A stretch of DNA of 20,000 nucleotides, from IMG/VR virus record IMGVR_UViG_3300038424_000133; one strand, written 5' to 3'. A program made the translations under genes and the position numbers. This document shows, piece by piece, positions 2,738 through 18,443 of the stretch; position 1 is the first letter of the stretch, and each line of letters begins with the position of its first letter. The notes below the pieces were generated by a model, which did no database searches, was not told where the DNA came from, and was given only the letters and a program-made list of their open reading frames with translations. The stretch comes from an uncultured virus (IMG/VR IMGVR_UViG_3300038424_000133) (taxonomy: Duplodnaviria; Heunggongvirae; Uroviricota; Caudoviricetes).

Positions 2738-3376
2738 TTAACCAATACCTTCATTATATCTATCAAGACATTCTTGACATAAATCATCTGTGGTGACTAA
2801 TTCTTTATCATGTCCACAATTTGCACATTTACCTATTCTTTTAGGTTTTGGGGCATTCTTAATTTGGTCCTCTATCCATTCATCCTCTAATTTAACCCAA
2901 TCTACTACTTCTTCATGAAATAGTATAATTCTCTTCTTTGATTCTCCAAGACCACTTGGAATAACAATTTTAGATTTATAGTAATAGACATCTTTGATTC
3001 CCGCCTGTATAATAAAGCGTCTGCAAAGATGGCATGGGCGTTCATCATTTTTATCATTAACTTCGCTAAGATACATCGTAGCTCCAACTGTAGATATTCC
3101 AACTCTTGCCGCATTCATAATACAATTTTGTTCTCCATGCACACTTGAACAATGCTCATATGATTTACAATGTTCTTCGTTATATAAGTCTTTTAAACAT
3201 GGGGTATCTACACCACAATTTTTTGCCCCACGAACAGTTCCAGTATAGCCAGTTGCTATAATAGCATCATCTTTAACTAATATAGCACCAAATTTTCGTC
3301 TGCTACACGGACTTCTTTCAGCAACAACTTTAGCCATTTTAAAATACCAATCTATTTTATTCGGTCTTTGGCTCAT
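2738..3376 (-). CDS. dCMP deaminase family protein
   Basis: RSPCSRRKFGA, ATGY, VHGEQN (HxE), PCHLC zinc motifs; extra C-terminal CxxC..CxxC. Confidence 0.9.
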   Translation of the reverse strand: MSQRPNKIDWYFKMAKVVAERSPCSRRKFGAILVKDDAIIATGYTGTVRGAKNCGVDTPCLKDLYNEEHCKSYEHCSSVHGEQNCIMNAARVGISTVGATMYLSEVNDKNDERPCHLCRRFIIQAGIKDVYYYKSKIVIPSGLGESKKRIILFHEEVVDWVKLEDEWIEDQIKNAPKPKRIGKCANCGHDKELVTTDDLCQECLDRYNEGIG

Positions 3377-3843
3377 CCATATTTCTCCATTATATACTCA
3401 TAATAATCTGACCAACTTATAAAGATTTCGGTTGAACAGCCCACAAGCCAACTTGGTAATTCACTTGGTTTCAGACTTCGTTCCGTAATAACATATATTG
3501 GTTTTCCAAGATAACATGCTAATGTAACTTCTCCGTAACTTCCACAAATTTCATAACCGTTAAGTTTAGGAATCCAAACAGTCAAGAAGTCTGCTTTTTT
3601 AACCATAATTAAATCTGTTTCAATCATATGACTACTAACAAGAGAACGGGTAGTTTCAATATCTCCCCTTTGATTAGCATCATAAATTTGCTTTCTAATA
3701 TCATCAGTATTACCTTTAATATTAAATGGATTTAGTGCTTCTATGCCCATTTTTCCAAGTCTTTCAGTTGCTTCTTCACGCCACTTTCGGCATTCACCAT
3801 TATTAGTTAAAGTTATCGGACCTGTTAAATATGTTTTAAGCAT
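3373..3843 (-). CDS. Nucleoside 2-deoxyribosyltransferase-like protein
   Basis: YLTGPI, WRE, LNP, DLIMVKKAD, GSYGE...GKPIY signature. Confidence 0.75.
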   Translation of the reverse strand: MLKTYLTGPITLTNNGECRKWREEATERLGKMGIEALNPFNIKGNTDDIRKQIYDANQRGDIETTRSLVSSHMIETDLIMVKKADFLTVWIPKLNGYEICGSYGEVTLACYLGKPIYVITERSLKPSELPSWLVGCSTEIFISWSDYYEYIMEKYG

Positions 3844-4653: not shown

Positions 4654-4835
4654 TTATCTACTTTTAAAGATTTAGATTCTGGAAACCTTTTTCTTGCATC
4701 ATCAATTAATATTTTTCTTCCAAAAGGTGTAAGATGAACTAATGCTCCACATCTACCACAAATAAAGTTCATACCACCACCACCATCTACGCCTTCATAA
4801 CCATCTTTATGTGGACAAGTTTCAGGGTTTATCAT
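4635..4835 (-). CDS. Small zinc-ribbon protein
   Basis: CPH...CGRCG; ATGA overlap with the radA stop. Confidence 0.55.
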   Translation of the reverse strand: MINPETCPHKDGYEGVDGGGGMNFICGRCGALVHLTPFGRKILIDDARKRFPESKSLKVDKWEEEK

Positions 4836-5854
4836 TCTGATGATTCTTCCTGTGCATTTACACCTAAATCTTTTGCAAGTTCTTCGGTTGTTTCTTCTAC
4901 TTCTTTATCTCCTTTCTTTTCTTTCTCTTTCTTTTTAAGGTCTTCCTGAGTCATCTTCTCTTCATATTTAGCCGCATTATCAAGCACTTGTTTAGCTACA
5001 GCCGCATCTTTTGGAATATCTTCTATGCCTTTTTCTGTAATTACAAATGAACGTTCAGCAAGTTTATTAAAACTTGAATCAACCATCCTAACTACTCTAA
5101 CATTGCCTGTACTTTTCATAAAAAATAATACAAAATCTGGCTGATGTGCTAACGAATGACCACCTATTGGTTTCTGTGTTTCTTCTTTGGGTTTTGGAAA
5201 ACCACCAGCATTAGGTTCATCATAAACCTGTGATGTATATAATAAAGCGGCTTTATGCATTTTACTTGCGGTTTCAAGCTGAGATATGAATTCTCTAAGC
5301 AAACCTGTCTTTAATCCTAAAGTTTCTCTGCCCTGAAATTCTATCCCTCTGAAATGTTTATTAAGTGAATCACATATGATTAAATCAACTTTGCCATCAA
5401 TATCTGCTGGGCTTGGCAAACTTGTAGAAACAATCATTTGTTCCATCCAGTTTTTAGGCTGATAATAGATAATTTTATCTCTAACTTTCTCCCAATTAAT
5501 TCCTCTTGTTTCGCACATTTCTCTTAGTCTTTCCATCCTGCAACTATCTTCAACATCAACATAAATAACCCAACCATCTGTTAATACTGTGCACGTTTCA
5601 CAGGTTTGTGTTTTACCTGTTCTAAATTCTCCATAAAGCAATGTTGATTTACCTTCTGGTATTCCACCACCTATAATGTCATCAATAACTGTGTTTGTCT
5701 TAACTTTAATTTCGCTTTTTTCAGACGCTTCTTTCTTTTTTAAATCTATCGGTTTTATCTTGGTATTTAATTTAACACTATCGGCATATTCTTTAAACTG
5801 GCTATTCTTTTTCTTTATGAGAAATTCTTTAATTTCATCTATACTATCTCCCAT
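4832..5854 (-). CDS. radA: RadA/Rad51-family recombinase
   Basis: IDDIIGGGIPEG, Walker A GEFRTGKTQ, Walker B LIICDS, KPIGGHSLAH, RMVDS..LAE..FVITEKGIED. Confidence 0.9.
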   Translation of the reverse strand: MGDSIDEIKEFLIKKKNSQFKEYADSVKLNTKIKPIDLKKKEASEKSEIKVKTNTVIDDIIGGGIPEGKSTLLYGEFRTGKTQTCETCTVLTDGWVIYVDVEDSCRMERLREMCETRGINWEKVRDKIIYYQPKNWMEQMIVSTSLPSPADIDGKVDLIICDSLNKHFRGIEFQGRETLGLKTGLLREFISQLETASKMHKAALLYTSQVYDEPNAGGFPKPKEETQKPIGGHSLAHQPDFVLFFMKSTGNVRVVRMVDSSFNKLAERSFVITEKGIEDIPKDAAVAKQVLDNAAKYEEKMTQEDLKKKEKEKKGDKEVEETTEELAKDLGVNAQEESSE

Positions 5855-7005: not shown

Positions 7006-7899
7006 TTATGGCGTAGATGTTTCTACTATTTTTGCAATACCAGCCGCCTGAATTACTACAGGTTGGTATCGGGTAGTTGTTGCGAATATGCTCAATTCTT
7101 TGTCTTCATATCTCTGCTCTCTAACTCTCATCTTACGTTTCCAAGCAAGAATCGCAACTGGACCCCACTTAAAGTTAGGTGGGAATACAATATATGAAAC
7201 GCCTGTACCTGCAAGCAATGGAGTCTGGAGAACTTTGCATCCTGCAAACCTACCCACTTCACCTTCAAGGCTTTGTGGAGTTAAGCCTGCATAGAAACGC
7301 TCTGTCAATATGAAGAGAGTGTCTTGAACTAATTTAGCCGCAACGTCTGGACCAACAATTAGGAATGGTGGATTATCGGGTTCAGCCATCCATTTACCTG
7401 CCGCCATTATTGCAAGAGTGTTTGTAACAGCAACATAGTTGCAACTTGCAACCGTGTTAGTTATACCCATACCTGCTGAATATAGCGAGTCAATATCCGC
7501 ATCAATTTGCTCCATGACTGCTTTTCCCATGTTGTGAAGGTGTAGTCTGAGCCAATCAATATTCGGATAATCTTCCTTCAATATATCAGTCAAAGATATT
7601 GACGAATATACGAAAGTTGATACTAAAACAAGGACTTTGCTGATGGTTTTATTAGCAGCTGTGAAACCCGAAGAAATTGTGTCTTCAATAGTGCTGGTCA
7701 ACTTTGTAGCAGTTAACTGAGTGGAAGTTGGTACATAGATTTGAGTACCTGTACTACCAATCAAAGAAAAATCTTCTGTTACTGTGTCAAAGAAAACCAA
7801 TGGTCGTCTTGCCCCTTCAATAACTTCGCTGTAAATCAAGAATGCACCGTAATTTACGTCTGCTGATTCAAGAACTTCTTGAATTTTAATTTTACCCAT
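7006..7899 (-). CDS. Major capsid protein (HK97-like)
   Basis: About 300 aa; GTQIYVP, HNMGKAVMEQIDADI, FLIVGP, GEVGRFAGCKV, TTTRYQ pattern; downstream of scaffold/protease with its own promoter. Confidence 0.8.
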   Translation of the reverse strand: MGKIKIQEVLESADVNYGAFLIYSEVIEGARRPLVFFDTVTEDFSLIGSTGTQIYVPTSTQLTATKLTSTIEDTISSGFTAANKTISKVLVLVSTFVYSSISLTDILKEDYPNIDWLRLHLHNMGKAVMEQIDADIDSLYSAGMGITNTVASCNYVAVTNTLAIMAAGKWMAEPDNPPFLIVGPDVAAKLVQDTLFILTERFYAGLTPQSLEGEVGRFAGCKVLQTPLLAGTGVSYIVFPPNFKWGPVAILAWKRKMRVREQRYEDKELSIFATTTRYQPVVIQAAGIAKIVETSTP

Positions 7900-10750: not shown

Positions 10751-11395
10751 CTATTTCACCCCTTGAAAACTACATCCTCTACCAATATTTATTTTTAATC
10801 TTAAAGTTGGTAATGATTCATCATTATAAATCATAGATTCTTGTATTTTAACATCTTCCACTTGTGCAGAATCTTGACCTCTAACTACTGATGGCTCTAT
10901 TAAAGAAACATGCTCTACTACCATGTTTTTTATTTTATTACATAATCCTTTAATTTTATCAACTACAGGATTAAGTTTACTAACAAATCCGCCTATACTA
11001 ACGCCCCAGCCACTTTTAATTCTATCTACTAAATCTGGAAATAATGGAGTATTCGCAACTTCCGCAATAAAAGTTATTTTTTTATTTATTCTATCAATTG
11101 CAGTTTTTATGATTTTACCTATTCTATGGTCATCTGAATCATCATGAAGATTCTTTGTTAAAACTCCTGTATTTGGATTAATATCTTCTTTAACTCCAAA
11201 ATACATTGGAACACCTTCTGCTTGTTTAGCAATATTTTCCATCTCATCAATTTCATAAACATTCTTATTACGGCTTATGCCCTCAACAAGTAATGTACCT
11301 GAAATCAAAGCTACACCATATGCAGATTCCATTACTTTAATTGGACCTATATACTTGAATTCTGAATAAATCATTTCTTCTTCTATTTTGTTCAT
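10751..11395 (-). CDS. Prohead (capsid maturation) protease
   Basis: ISG....GISRNKNVY, H...IG, GVSIGG (putative catalytic Ser), EHVSLIEP; herpes/HK97/T4-like assemblin pattern. Confidence 0.8.
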   Translation of the reverse strand: MNKIEEEMIYSEFKYIGPIKVMESAYGVALISGTLLVEGISRNKNVYEIDEMENIAKQAEGVPMYFGVKEDINPNTGVLTKNLHDDSDDHRIGKIIKTAIDRINKKITFIAEVANTPLFPDLVDRIKSGWGVSIGGFVSKLNPVVDKIKGLCNKIKNMVVEHVSLIEPSVVRGQDSAQVEDVKIQESMIYNDESLPTLRLKINIGRGCSFQGVK

Positions 11396-11778
11396 TACAT
11401 ATCAAATCCCGTTAATTCTGTTTCATCATCCAGTAACCAAGCCCAAGGTTTAACTTTGGGTCTTTCTACAGCAGATTCTTCGGTCTCAGTAACCGATTCT
11501 TCAATAAAGGTTAAATCAAATGTTTTAGGGTCAATTATAATATCGTAAACAAGTAAAGTCTCATTAACTTTATATCCATGAGAAACTACCCATGTTTTAG
11601 CCGCCTTCATATCGTAGCGTTCTCTTGAAAAAAGAATGCTTTGAATCTTTGAAACTTGATTAATATATCCTCTTACAGCTTTAATTCCACTACTCAAAGT
11701 TTCAACTCTAAAACGATTAAATTTTTCATTCTCTGCTACTCTTACTCGTATATAATTTGCTGTAGTTTCTACTGGCAT
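11395..11778 (-). CDS. Hypothetical head-module protein
   Basis: GGAGA RBS; YIRVRV..IQSILFSRERY..AAKTWVVSHG domain of a kind seen near viral prohead proteases. Confidence 0.6.
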   Translation of the reverse strand: MPVETTANYIRVRVAENEKFNRFRVETLSSGIKAVRGYINQVSKIQSILFSRERYDMKAAKTWVVSHGYKVNETLLVYDIIIDPKTFDLTFIEESVTETEESAVERPKVKPWAWLLDDETELTGFDM

Positions 11779-12022: not shown

Positions 12023-12844
12023 TTAACTCGAACTTTTACTTGAACTTGATGAACTATCAGACGACTTACTTGAATTTGAACCAGCACTCAATTTGCTTGT
12101 TGCTATTGTACCTTGAGGTTTACTTGACTTAGAACTTGAACTACTTGACGAACTATCGCTTGAACTGGATTTACTTGAATCAGATGAACTTGAACTACTA
12201 CTGCTTGAGCCTTTACCTGTTCCACTTCCTTTCTTGATAACTACTGCTGGAATCTTCTTTAACCCAAGTTTTCTGAATGCTACAACACGGGCATGACCAT
12301 CATGAATTTCATACCTGCCGTCTGGTAACTTATAAACTGTAATTGGCGGAACATCTGTTTTGCCGTCATTATGCATTTTAACAAATTTCTCTGCTCGTAC
12401 ATGTAATTTTTCATGTTTATCATCCTTGAATTTTTCGCTAAAATTAATCAATTGTGGGTCAATCATTATGATTTTAGGTTTCGCTGTTTCTTCTATAGTT
12501 TTTAAACCACATTCTTGCAAATACCAATTAATTAATGGTAAACTATTAACTTTGGTTTCTGATACTTCAACTCCAAATCGTTTTGCCCTTGATTTCAAAC
12601 ACCCTTCAATCCTTGCCCTAACTTTAGGGTTTAATTTCGCACCAAATTGGCTTAACCTTGCAAGTCCATTGCGAACATGAGCCGCATCGTGTGAAGGATA
12701 ACTTTTATGTGGACCACAAAAAGCTGTTGGTGGCAATTTCTGCCTCTCAGAATACTCAAGTTTTGCCTCTTGAATTGTTAGTCCTTCTAATTCAGCAATA
12801 ACTTCATATTCTTCTTTATTAATTAGATTTTCCACTTCGGACAT
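12023..12844 (-). CDS. DUF6582-like + ParB/Srx-like domain protein with Ser-rich tail
   Basis: ERQKLP..AFCGP.KSYPSHDAAHVRNGLAR; PPITV...YEIHDGHARVVAFRKLG; poly-Ser/Lys C-terminus. Confidence 0.7.
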   Translation of the reverse strand: MSEVENLINKEEYEVIAELEGLTIQEAKLEYSERQKLPPTAFCGPHKSYPSHDAAHVRNGLARLSQFGAKLNPKVRARIEGCLKSRAKRFGVEVSETKVNSLPLINWYLQECGLKTIEETAKPKIIMIDPQLINFSEKFKDDKHEKLHVRAEKFVKMHNDGKTDVPPITVYKLPDGRYEIHDGHARVVAFRKLGLKKIPAVVIKKGSGTGKGSSSSSSSSSDSSKSSSSDSSSSSSSSKSSKPQGTIATSKLSAGSNSSKSSDSSSSSSKSSS

Positions 12845-12931: not shown

Positions 12932-13453
12932 TTAAGTAGCCTTTGAAATTCGGAAGTGACTATTTTTACCTTGGCTAACGTATTCGCCGCCCAATCCCCT
13001 TACTGCACTTGCTATCTTTGCAAAGTTTTCTGAACCCAAAAACTGCTTAGGCTTAATAATGAACCACATATTATTCTCTTCGCTATTTATGTTAACCAGA
13101 CTTAGAATTTCATCTGGAAAAGTTGCAAGAATCTTTGCTAACTTAGCATCTGGTGCACTCGAAGTTGGTGTTTGTGCTGGTGGTAGTGGTGTTGCGGCTG
13201 GTACTTCTACTGGAGTAATGGTAGCATTTTTAACAACTACTTGCTTAGTGTTCTTAACTAATTCGTCTCTAATTTGAGCTAAAATTTCAGTTTGGTCTTT
13301 CAATGTTTTGCCAATATACACTTCCACTTCATATATTCTTTCAAGCAATTCAGAAGTCCCCAATTTCTTTTCTGGTTGTGGTTCTGGAGTCCCAACAAAA
13401 GAACGCTTTGGTTCTTCCGCAGTTGCTTGTTTATTTTCTTCTGGTGTTGCCAT
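12932..13453 (-). CDS. Conserved archaeal hypothetical protein
   Basis: C-terminal IKPKQFLGSENFAKIASAVRGLGGEYVSQGKNSHFRI domain after a Pro/Thr linker; TTTAAATA box at about 13488-13495. Confidence 0.7.
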   Translation of the reverse strand: MATPEENKQATAEEPKRSFVGTPEPQPEKKLGTSELLERIYEVEVYIGKTLKDQTEILAQIRDELVKNTKQVVVKNATITPVEVPAATPLPPAQTPTSSAPDAKLAKILATFPDEILSLVNINSEENNMWFIIKPKQFLGSENFAKIASAVRGLGGEYVSQGKNSHFRISKAT

Positions 13454-13499
13454 TTTTAATCACTACCTACTACATTAACAACGACCTATTTAAATATTA

Positions 13500-13617
13500 C
13501 GGTTCACAACATAGGTCAGTTTTACACGTTAAGCTTGGTTCACAAAAAGCCCAAGTTTTAAATTGCTGATTAGGTTCACAAATCGGCAAAGTTTTACATG
13601 CTTGGTTTAGGTTCACA
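13500..13617 (-). repeat. TIGR-like array, distal block (3 units, 4 edge repeats)
   Basis: ggttcaca (+) at 13501, 13537, 13573, 13610 alternating with agtttta(c/a)a; unique 9-nt spacers (one is 10 nt). Confidence 0.85.
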
Positions 13618-13620
13618 AAA

Positions 13621-14547
13621 TTATGAAGGAATCAAATCCTTCATTAGTTCAACAAACATTGCGGCTTGCTCATTTAATTGAGATGTCAAAACTCTTCGAG
13701 TTTTCTCAAAGACATTAGTGCCTGCCAAAACATCGCCTACCACCCAGATTTCATCGGGATTAACTTGCTTACATGCTTCAACGAACTTCTTCCAGTATTC
13801 ATATAACCTTTGGTTTGCTAAGGTTTGATTAACTGGTTTAGTTACGCCGTTAATTGTGTATTGTGGCGGTGCAATAGATTGAACTTCGCCTACATGGAAA
13901 TCTGCTACGCAAGCAACCACGAATTTAGCATCTTTAAGCAACTCTTTAAATGATGGGTCGAGACATACTTTTTCTGTTGGTGCATATTTTCTTCCACCAT
14001 TAATTTTTCCAAGGAAAATTTTATTTTCGTTATAATCAAAAACGAATGATGGATAAAGCCATTCTTGCAATTTAACATGTCCTGTTTCTGTTACTATTAT
14101 GAAATATGCCCCAATATCTGTTTGGAATTGTGCAAAACTACCGAGTGCTTTAGGATACTCAATGAATGTTGTCCAGCATGGCAAATTAAGTATTTTTATC
14201 GTTTCGTTTGCAAGCGTACCTGCCGTAGTGTGACCATGAGCCGCAACCCGTAGAGCTATATTATTTGGCAATTTACCATCATATGCGTCAATTTTGAATT
14301 GTTGAGCGTCACGCATAGATGTAGTATATGGATAAACTGATGCTAAACGCCTTGTATGAGTTACAAATGCAAGTTTATCATTATGCAAATCTTCGAGACT
14401 CCACCATGCTTTATGTATGGCATTAAAACCTAATTCCCTCAATTTATTTGCAATATCATCCATAATCAAAAAATCCAAGCTACTATGAACAGGCGTACCA
14501 TCCCAAAGTTTAATTGTTGGTTTATATTCTTTTTTAACTTTACTCAT
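13621..14547 (-). CDS. Circularly permuted calcineurin-like metallophosphoesterase
   Basis: N-half: GTPVH, VTH, AHGH, LPCW, DIGA (motifs III-V); C-half: ADFHVG, VVGDVLAG (motifs I-II). GGTGGTGA RBS. Confidence 0.75.
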   Translation of the reverse strand: MSKVKKEYKPTIKLWDGTPVHSSLDFLIMDDIANKLRELGFNAIHKAWWSLEDLHNDKLAFVTHTRRLASVYPYTTSMRDAQQFKIDAYDGKLPNNIALRVAAHGHTTAGTLANETIKILNLPCWTTFIEYPKALGSFAQFQTDIGAYFIIVTETGHVKLQEWLYPSFVFDYNENKIFLGKINGGRKYAPTEKVCLDPSFKELLKDAKFVVACVADFHVGEVQSIAPPQYTINGVTKPVNQTLANQRLYEYWKKFVEACKQVNPDEIWVVGDVLAGTNVFEKTRRVLTSQLNEQAAMFVELMKDLIPS

Positions 14548-14596
14548 TTGGTTAATTCACCACCTTTACAATGTCACCACAATTATATATACCTTT

Positions 14597-14857
14597 CGGT
14601 TCACAACGCTGGGCAGATTTACAAGTCATCCAAGGTTCACATTTTTGTAAAGTTTTACAAACATTTACTGGTTCACATGAAAACATAGAGTCACAATCGA
14701 GCCAAGGTTCACAATCTCTGTTAGTTTTATAGGTATTCATAGGTTCACAATATTCGTAAGTTTTACAACACGATTCTGGTTCACACGGTAGGGGAGTTTT
14801 ACATAACTGTATAGGTTCACAAATCTGCCCAGATTTACAAAAGGTTTTAGGTTCACA
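14597..14857 (-). repeat. TIGR-like array, main block (7 units of 36 nt, 8 edge repeats)
   Basis: ggttcaca (+) at exactly 14598, 14634, 14670, 14706, 14742, 14778, 14814, 14850; unit on minus strand = TGTGAACCW-N9-TGTAAAACT(variants)-N9. Confidence 0.9.
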
Positions 14858-14865
14858 ATACATTA

Positions 14866-15900
14866 TTATTCACACAGGTCTTCTGGATGTAACCATTCTG
14901 TATCTGACAATTCACGCTCTGCATCTGATAGTTTAATTTGGCTGTTCGGGTCAGGATTATGTTGCGGTCTTGATATTGGCAAATTATAGATTTCTTGGTA
15001 TTTCTCCCAGAGTATAGATAGAAAAGTCTTTATAAATCGTCTTCGACTTAAATCAAGGCTGTTTGGTATATATTGTTTCGGAAAATTCTTCTTAACTTCT
15101 ATTCTTGTTGGATAACCATAATGTTTAATTAAATATTTCTCATAGTTAGCCAATGTTTCTTCGTGGTAACGCTTAAACAGGTCATAGCATTTACCTTTTT
15201 GCCTAATTACGGCATCAAAAAGAACATACATTGTCTTTTTATATTCGGCGTTTCCCATACAAGATTCCTTATTATAATTTGCTCGGCAAAATGCTCTATG
15301 GCTTGTTTCATCCACTCCATAACCGCACAGTTTAATCAATGAACTTCGTGATTTAGGGCGATAAAGTTTAAATGTCTTTTTCTGTGGGGCATCAAGAACT
15401 TCTCCTGTTCGCTCTTTCTTTTTAACATAAGCAGTCATTTCCATTTCAGCCCAATAAGGTTCGAAATAAGCTATCATTTTAGCGGCGGTAAGTATGCCTA
15501 TGCCTTTAACTCTACCAAGCCACTCTACATACAGCTTATTATTTTCGACTATTAGCTTCATCTGCTTAACAAGGTCGTCTTCCCAATACTGCAAGCCATG
15601 AAACTTCTTTTTTGGTCGCCCAATATCTTCGTATCCTTCTGGCATCTCAACATTATCCATTCCTTCAACCATAGAGTCCTCAATCAGCCAACCAAGCCTG
15701 CCTTCCTGTGTTGCTCCCTGTACCAAACTACGCACACGATTCTCAAACGCCTGCCTTGCTTTCTGCATATCCTGATGCTTACGAACAAGTTCACGTAAAT
15801 GCGTCAATTGCTCAACAGTTGACCCACTTAGCAAAGGTTCACAAACAATCATAGTTTTACATTCGCCGTTAGGTTCACATTCTAATTTTACTTCATTCAT
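14866..15900 (-). CDS. Nop-domain TIGR-associated protein, TasA-like (no RuvC/HNH)
   Basis: IS110/Nop-type coiled coil LRELVRKHQDMQKARQAFENR, WLGRVKGIGILTAAKMIA, SSLIKLCG, RRRFIKTFLSILWE; no DEDD RuvC N-terminus; flanked by 36-nt dual-repeat arrays. Start placed at ATG 15900, downstream of the TATA box. Confidence 0.8.
   Translation of the reverse strand: MNEVKLECEPNGECKTMIVCEPLLSGSTVEQLTHLRELVRKHQDMQKARQAFENRVRSLVQGATQEGRLGWLIEDSMVEGMDNVEMPEGYEDIGRPKKKFHGLQYWEDDLVKQMKLIVENNKLYVEWLGRVKGIGILTAAKMIAYFEPYWAEMEMTAYVKKKERTGEVLDAPQKKTFKLYRPKSRSSLIKLCGYGVDETSHRAFCRANYNKESCMGNAEYKKTMYVLFDAVIRQKGKCYDLFKRYHEETLANYEKYLIKHYGYPTRIEVKKNFPKQYIPNSLDLSRRRFIKTFLSILWEKYQEIYNLPISRPQHNPDPNSQIKLSDAERELSDTEWLHPEDLCE
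15835..15879 (-). repeat. Single TIGR-like unit embedded in the 5' end of the tas ORF
   Basis: TGTGAACCT-AACGGCGAA-TGTAAAACT-ATGATTGTT-TGTGAACCT, read in frame as CEPNGECKTMIVCEP. Confidence 0.8.
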
Positions 15901-15932
15901 TCTAATCACTACTAAGCTATATAGCATACCCA

Positions 15933-15947
15933 CTTATAAACTTATCC
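15933..15947 (-). promoter_or_regulatory. Promoter of the tas/TIGR operon
   Basis: GGATAAG-TTTATAAG (BRE-TATA-like) 33-47 nt upstream of ATG 15900. Confidence 0.55.
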
Positions 15948-15960
15948 TTTAAGTAATTAC

Positions 15961-16149
15961 TTAATTCAATTGCTTAACTTCGCCGTTGCAGTAGTAACAG
16001 GAAGTCATAGGATTAAGACCACCGCCTTTATGTCCCCTGTGATGTCTATAGCTATGTTTTACACTATGCCGTTTATAAATATACCGAATAAACTCTCTTC
16101 CACATCTACCGCATTTGACCCTAATTTCGCTAACCAATTCATATATCAC
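15961..16149 (-). CDS. Small zinc-ribbon protein with basic His-rich loop
   Basis: CGRCG...RHSVKHSYRHHRGH...CYYC; exact start uncertain. Confidence 0.55.
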   Translation of the reverse strand: MIYELVSEIRVKCGRCGREFIRYIYKRHSVKHSYRHHRGHKGGGLNPMTSCYYCNGEVKQLN

Positions 16150-16252
16150 ACCTACCCATAGAACTGCCCACCAGTTAAGCAGACATCGTTCTCTTATGGT
16201 TTACTGAGCATGGGTCATTATGCGTAGCACCTACTATAACATTATAGTCTCC

Positions 16253-17788: not shown

Positions 17789-17889
17789 ATTGTCCTAAAT
17801 GTGGAACTAAAGTTATTGCTGAAAATCAACCAGAAGATGTTAATGAAATTTTATGGTTAAAATGCCCAAAATGTGGGTGGAAAAACTAA
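17785..17889 (+). CDS. Small zinc-ribbon protein (34 aa)
   Basis: MNCPKCGTK...KCPKCGWKN; ATGA and TAATG coupling on both sides; GGTGA RBS. Confidence 0.65.
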   Translation: MNCPKCGTKVIAENQPEDVNEILWLKCPKCGWKN

Positions 17890-18443
17890 TGAAAGAAAGT
17901 GTTGGCTTAATGTTTTCAGGCGGTGTTGATTCGATTGTTTGTTTATCTGAACTTGTTAAGCAGGGTATAGTTCCAAAGTTATTCCTATTTCAAACTTGGA
18001 AAATGAAGAATTATCATGTTCAACAAATTAAGCGTAATGCAAGGCGAATATCACCTAATTCTCAAATTTATGTATTTAAACCACGAACTATAGATTACTG
18101 TGCTACTTGGGAAACAAGATGTGATTCTAAAGACTTTTATAGTGTTTCAATGGATGAATATTGCAAACATCGTTTTTATCCATTAGAATTAGTTAATAAA
18201 TTAGTTATTGGATATGTTGACCATGAAATAAGGGGTAAACGTAGGAAAGGCGAAATAGGACTTGCTCAACCTATGTTAATGAATTATGCTGTTCAATATA
18301 GATACCCATTAATATTTCCATTAAGAGGTAAAACAACACGGCAAGTAGATGAAATGTTTAAAGCTTTATCAATAGAAGTTCAACAAAATACTTTATCATC
18401 AACAAGAGAGTATGAGTTTGGTGGGGCACACTTAAATGGGTAA
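17889..18443 (+). CDS. PP-loop (HUP) ATP pyrophosphatase, QueC-like N-terminus
   Basis: VGLMFSGGVDS motif, LIFPL; start re-assigned to the coupled ATG at 17889. Confidence 0.7.
   Translation: MKESVGLMFSGGVDSIVCLSELVKQGIVPKLFLFQTWKMKNYHVQQIKRNARRISPNSQIYVFKPRTIDYCATWETRCDSKDFYSVSMDEYCKHRFYPLELVNKLVIGYVDHEIRGKRRKGEIGLAQPMLMNYAVQYRYPLIFPLRGKTTRQVDEMFKALSIEVQQNTLSSTREYEFGGAHLNG

Follow-up and report, generated by a model that had tools for sequence, protein, structure and literature searches.

The stretch of DNA described here (the window, 20,000 nucleotides) belongs to an uncultured virus of the Caudoviricetes, IMG/VR record IMGVR_UViG_3300038424_000133, and carries a gene whose product of 308 amino acids, P0001, is almost certainly, to judge from its alignments, a true circular permutant of the calcineurin-like metallophosphoesterases (MPEs). 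We call the gene and its product cpMPE. The module with motifs I and II, which is normally N-terminal, comes after the module with motifs III to V, a new linker of some 34 residues connects the old ends, and the chain now begins and ends in the loop between alpha2 and beta3. In cpMPE a known enzyme fold takes a new topology, which is conserved among uncultured viruses, and the portions of the literature open to full-text searches yielded no account of a calcineurin-like MPE fold circularly permuted in nature. The permutation occurred once in a viral phosphoesterase family whose fold is closest to the 3'-5' exonuclease DP1 of PolD and to Mre11/SbcD, and a group of uncultured viruses has since carried the permuted form as a core gene. 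In the window and one sub-lineage a TIGR-TasA locus adjoins cpMPE on the same strand, and there the gene would probably be co-transcribed with the TIGR arrays. We give a probability of about 0.7 to this reading as a whole, that is, to an intact permuted two-metal phosphoesterase, encoded by a viral core gene of single origin, that is likely a DNA-end enzyme and stands beside TIGR-TasA.

Two parts of the protein align separately, and in swapped order, to relatives that keep the canonical order. Against the canonical protein P0060, BLASTP aligned residues 9-193 of P0001 to residues 110-290 (38% identity, E 2e-39) and residues 202-305 to residues 2-108 (35% identity, E 1e-11). A hidden Markov model (HMM) of 277 positions, made from 30 canonical-order relatives, matches P0001 in block A at 97.4 bits and in block B at 82.0 bits (Table 1), and it matches all 46 of the 46 members of the permuted family, each as a pair of blocks in swapped order. 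Comparison of block A with the canonical relatives by hhalign gave a probability of 99.6%. By these scores the swapped block order is far beyond chance. The chain break in P0001 falls between canonical profile positions 108 and 112, and no other stretch of the family varies as much or has as many gaps as the linker of residues 168-201 (alignment columns about 200-225). The earlier note on this DNA, made from the sequence alone, had read the motif order as III-IV-V-I-II instead of I-II-III-IV-V, and both BLASTP and the canonical HMM agree with it; joining the C-terminus of P0001 to its N-terminus restores the canonical order at the break just given. The motifs that the note quoted are all present in the translation in the order it gave (WDGTPVH at 15-21, FVTH at 61-64, AAHGH at 102-106, LPCW, DIGA, ADFHVG at 215-220 and VVGDVLAG at 269-276), and its assignments match the canonical alignment, with H21 in motif III, H64 in motif IV, H104 and H106 in motif V, D216 and H218 in motif I and G271-D272 in motif II.

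Database searches place both orders in the same family. A phmmer search of 1.84 billion representatives returned, exhaustively, 110 matches to P0001, which were re-scored with each part of P0001 used as its own query. In 74 of them both parts are present in the opposite, canonical order and in 5 they are colinear with P0001; the remaining 31 hold only the motif I-II part (24), only the motif III-V part (5) or neither (2). A collection of 5.8 billion proteins contained 51 relatives of P0001 at 46-100% identity, mostly of 298-337 amino acids with a few fragments, and a precomputed Pfam domain was present on none of the 51. The libraries searched hold at least 56 members of the permuted clade in all, and this clade, together with its close canonical sisters, is a clean natural experiment on how an active site with two metals and five contributing loops withstands a change of connectivity.

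An artefact of assembly or gene calling, either a chimeric contig or two adjacent gene fragments merged into one, could also give a swapped order, and the window is metagenomic with repeats, the arrays, flanking the gene. The open reading frame (ORF) is uninterrupted, however, and 24 of 33 metagenome loci, from many samples and at 43-100% identity, span both blocks in the permuted order, the other 9 being cut by contig ends. Independently assembled contigs of runs X8, X10, X11 and X12, none of them marked as a possible source of the window, span 13300-16200 without joints and cross the block junction near 13950 without a single difference. Because contigs of four other runs bridge the junction, the swapped order is not a misassembly, and we regard an artefact as extremely improbable. 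The earlier note had named misassembly as one way in which its claim could fail and homologues as a check on it; the independent contigs and the 24 colinear loci both uphold the permutation.

The permuted proteins share a single origin. A tree of 88 rows was made from 17 of the 56 permuted proteins, rotated in silico, and 71 of the 74 canonical proteins, the three others being left out by a length filter of 240-345 amino acids. All 17 permuted proteins fall in one clade (Shimodaira-Hasegawa-like approximate likelihood ratio test, SH-aLRT, 100), which is nested with the canonical proteins P0060-63 (99). On this tree the permutation arose once, within a viral phosphoesterase family of about 260-300 amino acids.

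An AlphaFold2 model of P0001, from a 46-sequence alignment, has a predicted local distance difference test score (pLDDT) of 87.8 and a predicted TM-score (pTM) of 0.90, with lower pLDDT at residues 181-190, and the ESM Atlas model of the same sequence has a pTM of 0.84; the modelling suggests one compact domain. In the model the motifs sit at the C-terminal ends of strands, which is the usual pattern of this fold, so that strand 11-15 leads to motif III, strand 59-63 to H64, strand 97-102 to H104 and H106, strand 207-215 to D216 and H218, and strand 266-270 to G271-D272. The last helix (291-305) corresponds to the canonical alpha2 and the first strand to beta3. A Foldseek search of the model against the PDB gave no match at E<=1e-3, as expected because Foldseek is a sequential aligner. 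An exhaustive VIA search, by comparison, had MPE-fold chains at the top, namely DP1 (5ihe, Z 5.6), 1nnw (Z 5.4) and MJ0936 (Z 5.2), and further matches to polymerase B-subunits, Vps29, LpxH, SbcD and Mre11. Most of these chains, though not 1nnw, align their portion after motif II to model residues of about 1-170, which is block A only. The model of the canonical relative P0074 (pLDDT 91.6) gave 330 full-length Foldseek matches at E<=1e-3, the best being DP1 at E 4.1e-11 (TMq up to 0.61), with archaeal Mre11 next (E 7e-11).

The residues expected to bind metal are conserved in both orders. Across 46 permuted sequences, down to 48% identity, D216, H218, G271, D272, H21, H64, H104 and H106 are invariant, and the same ligand columns are invariant in 30 canonical relatives. 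D216/H218 and G271/D272 align to D19/H21 and G75/D76 of canonical P0060, and H64 and H104-G-H106 align to H170 and H209/H211 of canonical P0074. The earlier note's statement that most metal ligands appear to be retained is therefore supported by the invariance of the ligand residues of motifs I, II, IV and V and of the motif III histidine. These alignments suggest that P0001 is an intact two-metal phosphoesterase and probably active.

By its motifs the protein is a member of the calcineurin-like superfamily (Pfam PF00149 clan): it has motifs I, II, IV and V, and their order along its chain differs from that of the superfamily. Residues 18-119 of the permuted relative P0059 match positions 66-172 of Pfam Metallophos at 27.0 bits (cutoff 21.5), and the N-termini of the canonical proteins P0074, P0082 and P0065 match positions 1-81 above the cutoff at 23.6-28.6 bits. 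ESM Atlas neighbours of P0001 are viral calcineurin-like clusters (score 0.94). PHROGs gave weak matches, to phrog_284 ('exonuclease') at E 2.7e-4 for P0001 and in 11 of 46 members, and to phrog_547 ('phosphoesterase') in 4 of 46. NCBIfam had no match for the phosphoesterases save a sub-threshold PdeM match of P0061, PADLOC had 0 matches among 11 proteins, and the PDB searched by sequence profile held nothing real (best E 1.2). A tblastn search of P0001, P0060 and P0082 against 50,697 deposited phage records gave no match, and the nearest canonical sisters (group A2) were not found among viral contigs. Pfam, NCBIfam and Foldseek leave the permuted proteins unnamed because of the circular permutation. 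One canonical-order protein, P0097 (635 amino acids), has an intein with a LAGLIDADG endonuclease between its two blocks.

The canonical viral MPEs (about 260-300 amino acids; nearest P0060-P0063, 35-38% identity per block) have both sequence blocks in common with cpMPE, as well as the invariant residues of all five motifs, the PCW and QPDIG motifs, similar size and viral origin. They differ from it in that cpMPE has the reversed block order, the new linker and new termini between alpha2 and beta3, and they are themselves unnamed and unstudied. DP1, the small subunit of PolD and a 3'-5' proofreading exonuclease with a two-metal MPE fold (PDB 5ihe, 9f2a, 8ppt), is the best structural match both of the canonical relative (TMq 0.58-0.61) and of cpMPE block A, but the identity is about 16%, no OB domain is seen here and DP1 has the canonical motif order. 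Mre11/SbcD (PDB 4tug, 3qg5, 7dog, 6s85) likewise have an MPE nuclease fold, and like them the cpMPE family occurs in recombination-module contexts with Rad51 and ERCC4 neighbours. In contrast to Mre11/SbcD, cpMPE has only 308 residues and no capping domain is seen, motif III reads GT..H and not GNH, and the motif order is permuted.

Gene neighbourhoods place the family among viral replication and recombination genes. Among 13 canonical loci whose neighbours were annotated, L036 has a DnaB-type helicase, a family A polymerase, DNA methylases and a primase, L037 and L041 have a Rad51-like recombinase and an ERCC4 nuclease, L050 has an ERCC4 nuclease alone, and L039 has a PD-(D/E)XK nuclease and AAA_24. 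The window itself encodes a Rad51-like recombinase (4832-5854) and a primase-large-subunit-like gene. The cpMPE loci keep their synteny, with P0004-like and ParB_N-like genes and homologues of the window genes at 11395-11778, 10751-11395 and 7006-7899, and cpMPE is a core gene of this uncultured virus group. We infer that its most likely job is to act on DNA ends, as a nuclease or phosphodiesterase, in viral replication, recombination or repair; for a nuclease in particular, fold likeness and context leave the chances about even.

Several results weigh against the reading of cpMPE as an intact DNA-end enzyme derived by permutation. The VIA scores reach at most Z 5.6, and according to the tool values of Z<8 can reflect a mere common arrangement; such low scores would be insufficient by themselves. 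Whole P0001 has no Pfam, NCBIfam or PADLOC match at threshold, and its C-terminal 110 residues match Metallophos positions 3-58 at E 0.15, below the cutoff. A Rad50/SbcC (SMC/ABC) ATPase was found neither among the window ORFs nor among 73 neighbours of canonical relatives, and a DP2 partner was likewise not seen among the window ORFs or the canonical-relative neighbours; since neither partner is seen, the nuclease role is argued from fold likeness and neighbourhood. A search for longer, tandem or fused forms of 540-2000 amino acids, which might represent a duplication intermediate, gave none, though this is weak evidence. The textbook model for circular permutation, duplication and then truncation, is a presumed origin of the permuted form. 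Finally, the textbook motif III is G-N-H-(D/E), and in P0001 it reads G17-T18-P-V-H21-x-S-x-D25, with an invariant histidine and no asparagine, so that the metal site may differ from that of textbook enzymes.

Some MPE-fold proteins, such as polymerase B-subunits and Vps29, are non-catalytic, which also counts against an active enzyme. P0001 could accordingly be a catalytically dead structural or scaffold protein of this kind, in which the permutation would have been tolerated since activity was irrelevant; the inactive B-subunits of Pol delta, epsilon and alpha and Vps29 are indeed among its structural neighbours, and the absence of the motif III asparagine fits. The invariance of the motif I, II, IV and V ligands and of the motif III histidine in 46 permuted and 30 canonical sequences argues against a dead protein, as does the finding that the variant motif III (SGSxYHxSxD across the 30 canonical relatives) is common to the whole family with the histidine itself invariant. 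We consider a scaffold improbable and prefer a probably active two-metal phosphoesterase.

At the window locus a Tas Nop-domain protein and a dual-repeat 36-nt array are both present. The tasA ORF at 14866-15933 matches positions 1-213 of the 215 in NCBIfam NF052498 (TIGR-Tas RNA-guided endonuclease), with E 5e-20 to 7e-20 and a score of 72 bits that falls short of the cutoff of 100 bits, and it also matches phrog_4285. The Tas protein is TasA because it has no extra nuclease domain. When six homologues were aligned, their start fell at the position of M28, which gives a probable ATG at 15852 and a protein of 328 amino acids; the longest ORF begins with array-encoded residues. The array unit has a 36-nt period and consists of the edge repeat TGTGAACC, a 10-nt spacer, the loop repeat TGTAAAAC and a second 10-nt spacer. 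There are three pieces of array in the window, with 11 units in all, on the same strand as cpMPE. Array 1 ends 50 nt before the cpMPE ATG and the first base of array 2 is the 4th base 3' of the stop codon, as the earlier note had placed them (about 50 nt before the start and 4 nt past the stop). If tasA starts at 15852, the terminal edge repeat of array 0 lies within codons 4-6, and array processing would therefore cut in the 5' end of tasA; tigRNAs embedded in a TasA coding sequence are described by Xu et al. (2026, bioRxiv 10.64898/2026.09.09.750476). The same source describes TasA as a repressor and the cutting of dual-repeat arrays in the edge repeat by Tas itself. Because Tas itself cuts edge repeats, a transcript that covers cpMPE and the arrays would be severed on either side of the cpMPE reading frame, which would release the cpMPE mRNA, as the earlier note had proposed.

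The relation of cpMPE to tasA was determined in 20 loci on the cpMPE tree, of which 19 were scored for tasA, L010 being left unscored for lack of flank. tasA adjoins cpMPE in 6 of the 19 (the window, L016, L017, L018, L025 and L026). The available DNA of the other 13 contains no tasA, and 10 of these have at least 2.5 kb on both sides. Five tasA-bearing loci form one clade (SH-aLRT 86), and the tasA trait requires 2 changes on the cpMPE tree compared with a mean of 5.3 in shuffles, a value as low being reached in 2 of 500 shuffles. Arrays with the same edge repeat abut cpMPE in L015, L016, L017, L018 and L053; L015 shows the array only because its contig ends there. The order is array - tasA - array - cpMPE - array in the window and L016, cpMPE - array - tasA - array in L017, L018 and L053, and cpMPE - tasA with no recognisable array in L025 and L026. 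Seven lineages (the window, L015, L016, L017/L018, L025, L026 and L053) thus have tasA or an array immediately beside cpMPE on the same strand, and within one lineage this arrangement is stable and of long standing. Among related arrays the TGTGAACC edge repeat is kept and the unit length varies (35, 36 or 37 nt), being 35 nt in L016 and 37 nt in L018.

That cpMPE belongs to the TIGR system is not supported, cpMPE being a core virus gene with no tasA in the available DNA of 13 of 19 scored loci. cpMPE does not co-occur consistently with tas genes, nor do its canonical relatives, 15 of 16 of whose loci are without TasA (the one with it being L050). The enzyme clearly works without TasA elsewhere, and functional coupling of the two is unlikely. 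Such coupling would make cpMPE a working accessory of TIGR-TasA, either as a trans-acting nuclease recruited by the nuclease-less TasA or as an RNA-end phosphoesterase that trims TasA-cut ends, with its mRNA released or dosed by the same processing. Each tasA-bearing lineage does have cpMPE as the immediate same-strand neighbour of tasA or an array, though tasA is upstream in two and downstream in the others; searches that started from TasA gave two loci, the L026 contig and L053, and both contain cpMPE; and the tasA-bearing loci cluster on the cpMPE tree as described above. A canonical-order relative also lies 2.3 kb from an unrelated TIGR-TasA in L050, and TasA lacks a nuclease and acts as a repressor (bioRxiv 10.64898/2026.09.09.750476). 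There is a published precedent for an array-bracketed gene: Faure et al. (2025, PMC12045711) describe tasParB-tasA operons of dual-repeat TIGR systems in which arrays occur before, after and between tasA and a protein-coding gene of the same orientation. The gene enclosed by arrays encodes ParB there and a phosphoesterase in the window.

Against an accessory role stand the 13 loci without tasA in their available DNA, which keep the same backbone genes, and the 15 canonical loci without TasA. The available parts of Faure et al. (PMC12045711) report no clear protein association of TasA except ParB-like genes, and the words 'phosphoesterase', 'Metallophos' and 'calcineurin' are absent from four of its supplementary text files. 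The adjacency is also partly a matter of construction, because most tasA-bearing loci were found via cpMPE, and the arrays are direct repeats, which favour purely local rearrangement and would so keep the neighbours together without selection. On balance an accessory role is unlikely. It could take the form of a two-part RNA-guided system in which TasA would find the DNA target and cpMPE, as a DP1/Mre11-like nuclease, would degrade it in trans in the manner of Cascade-Cas3, or, as a variant, in which cpMPE would heal TasA-cut tigRNA ends; the bracketing by arrays would let TasA cleavage of edge repeats excise the cpMPE mRNA and so tie its dose to guide production. We hold this scheme to be unlikely as well. 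If true, TasA coupling would give the first accessory enzyme of a TIGR system and would explain how a nuclease-less TasA could do more than repress transcription. The preferred reading is that of a likely DNA-end enzyme of the virus, encoded by a core gene that stands beside TIGR-TasA.

Table 1. Positions in the window of cpMPE, its parts and the features around it
Feature	Position	Strand	Basis or remark
cpMPE gene (P0001), calcineurin-like metallophosphoesterase, almost certainly circularly permuted, 308 amino acids	13621..14547	-	ORF, uninterrupted
cpMPE block A, residues 11-167, aligned to the C-terminal two-thirds of canonical relatives	14047..14517	-	canonical HMM positions 112-267; contains motif III (G17-T18..H21), motif IV (H64), motif V (H104, H106), W125 and D144-I-G146
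cpMPE new linker, residues 168-201, old C-terminus to old N-terminus	13945..14046	-	outside canonical HMM coverage
cpMPE block B, residues 202-306, aligned to the N-terminal third of canonical relatives	13630..13944	-	canonical HMM positions 5-108; contains motif I (D216-x-H218) and motif II (G271-D272)
TIGR array 1, between tasA and cpMPE, 7 units of 36 nt and a terminal edge repeat	14598..14857	-	
TIGR array 2, directly downstream of cpMPE, 3 units and a terminal edge repeat, first unit 37 nt	13501..13617	-	
TIGR array 0, 1 unit and a terminal edge repeat, overlaps the tasA start	15836..15879	-	
tasA, Nop-domain Tas protein without nuclease, probably 328 amino acids from the ATG at 15852	14866..15852	-	longest ORF to 15933
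P0004, conserved neighbour, 173 amino acids	12932..13453	-	C-terminal part of about 65 amino acids (cluster c1) near cpMPE in most related loci, on either side

Other features of the TIGR region were recorded (Table 1). A 103-residue ORF at 14552-14863 on the minus strand is array 1 in translation (repeating CEP...CKT) and is not a gene, because the 36-nt array period leaves the frame open. A terminator-like hairpin at 13623-13644 on the same strand, with 8 pairs and then a T-rich tail, overlaps the last cpMPE codons just before array 2; promoter and terminator scans were no higher than shuffles (11 against 12.1 and 2 against 2.2). An Rfam search gave no match. Guanine-plus-cytosine content is 0.35-0.40 in the block at 11.8-16.3 kb and 0.28-0.32 around it, and since the raised content spans the whole block it is not specific to the TIGR part. 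Targets were sought in the window and the loci as paired matches of spacers A and B no more than 40 nt apart, with up to 1 mismatch allowed in each spacer; only two matches, for one AT-rich unit, were obtained, which we take as chance.

The TIGR locus of L050 (1480-2673) encodes an unrelated compact TasA of 264 amino acids that matches NF052498 at 181 bits, above the cutoff, and has a 36-nt array of at least 9 units with the repeat GCGAGCCA; an ERCC4 nuclease lies between this locus and the canonical phosphoesterase. In the window a ParB_N-like gene at 12023-12844 on the minus strand, two genes downstream of the TIGR locus, recalls tasParB, and it has homologues in tasA-less loci too. Genes at 983-1441, 2738-3376, 3373-3843 and 17853-18443 resemble a dATP/dGTP diphosphohydrolase N-domain, dCMP deaminase, nucleoside 2-deoxyribosyltransferase and, weakly, QueC, and these four may form a nucleotide-pool or DNA-modification module. 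The L053 contig is assigned to a metagenome-assembled genome of an 'uncultured archaeon', a weak hint at the host, and the virus group is possibly archaeal. A gene of about 90 amino acids (cluster c2) lies just downstream of cpMPE, either directly or past 1-2 small ORFs, in nine tasA-less loci (L004, L006, L007, L012, L013 and L020-L023), where the window has array 2; the region downstream of cpMPE is variable because clusters c3 and c13 come and go.

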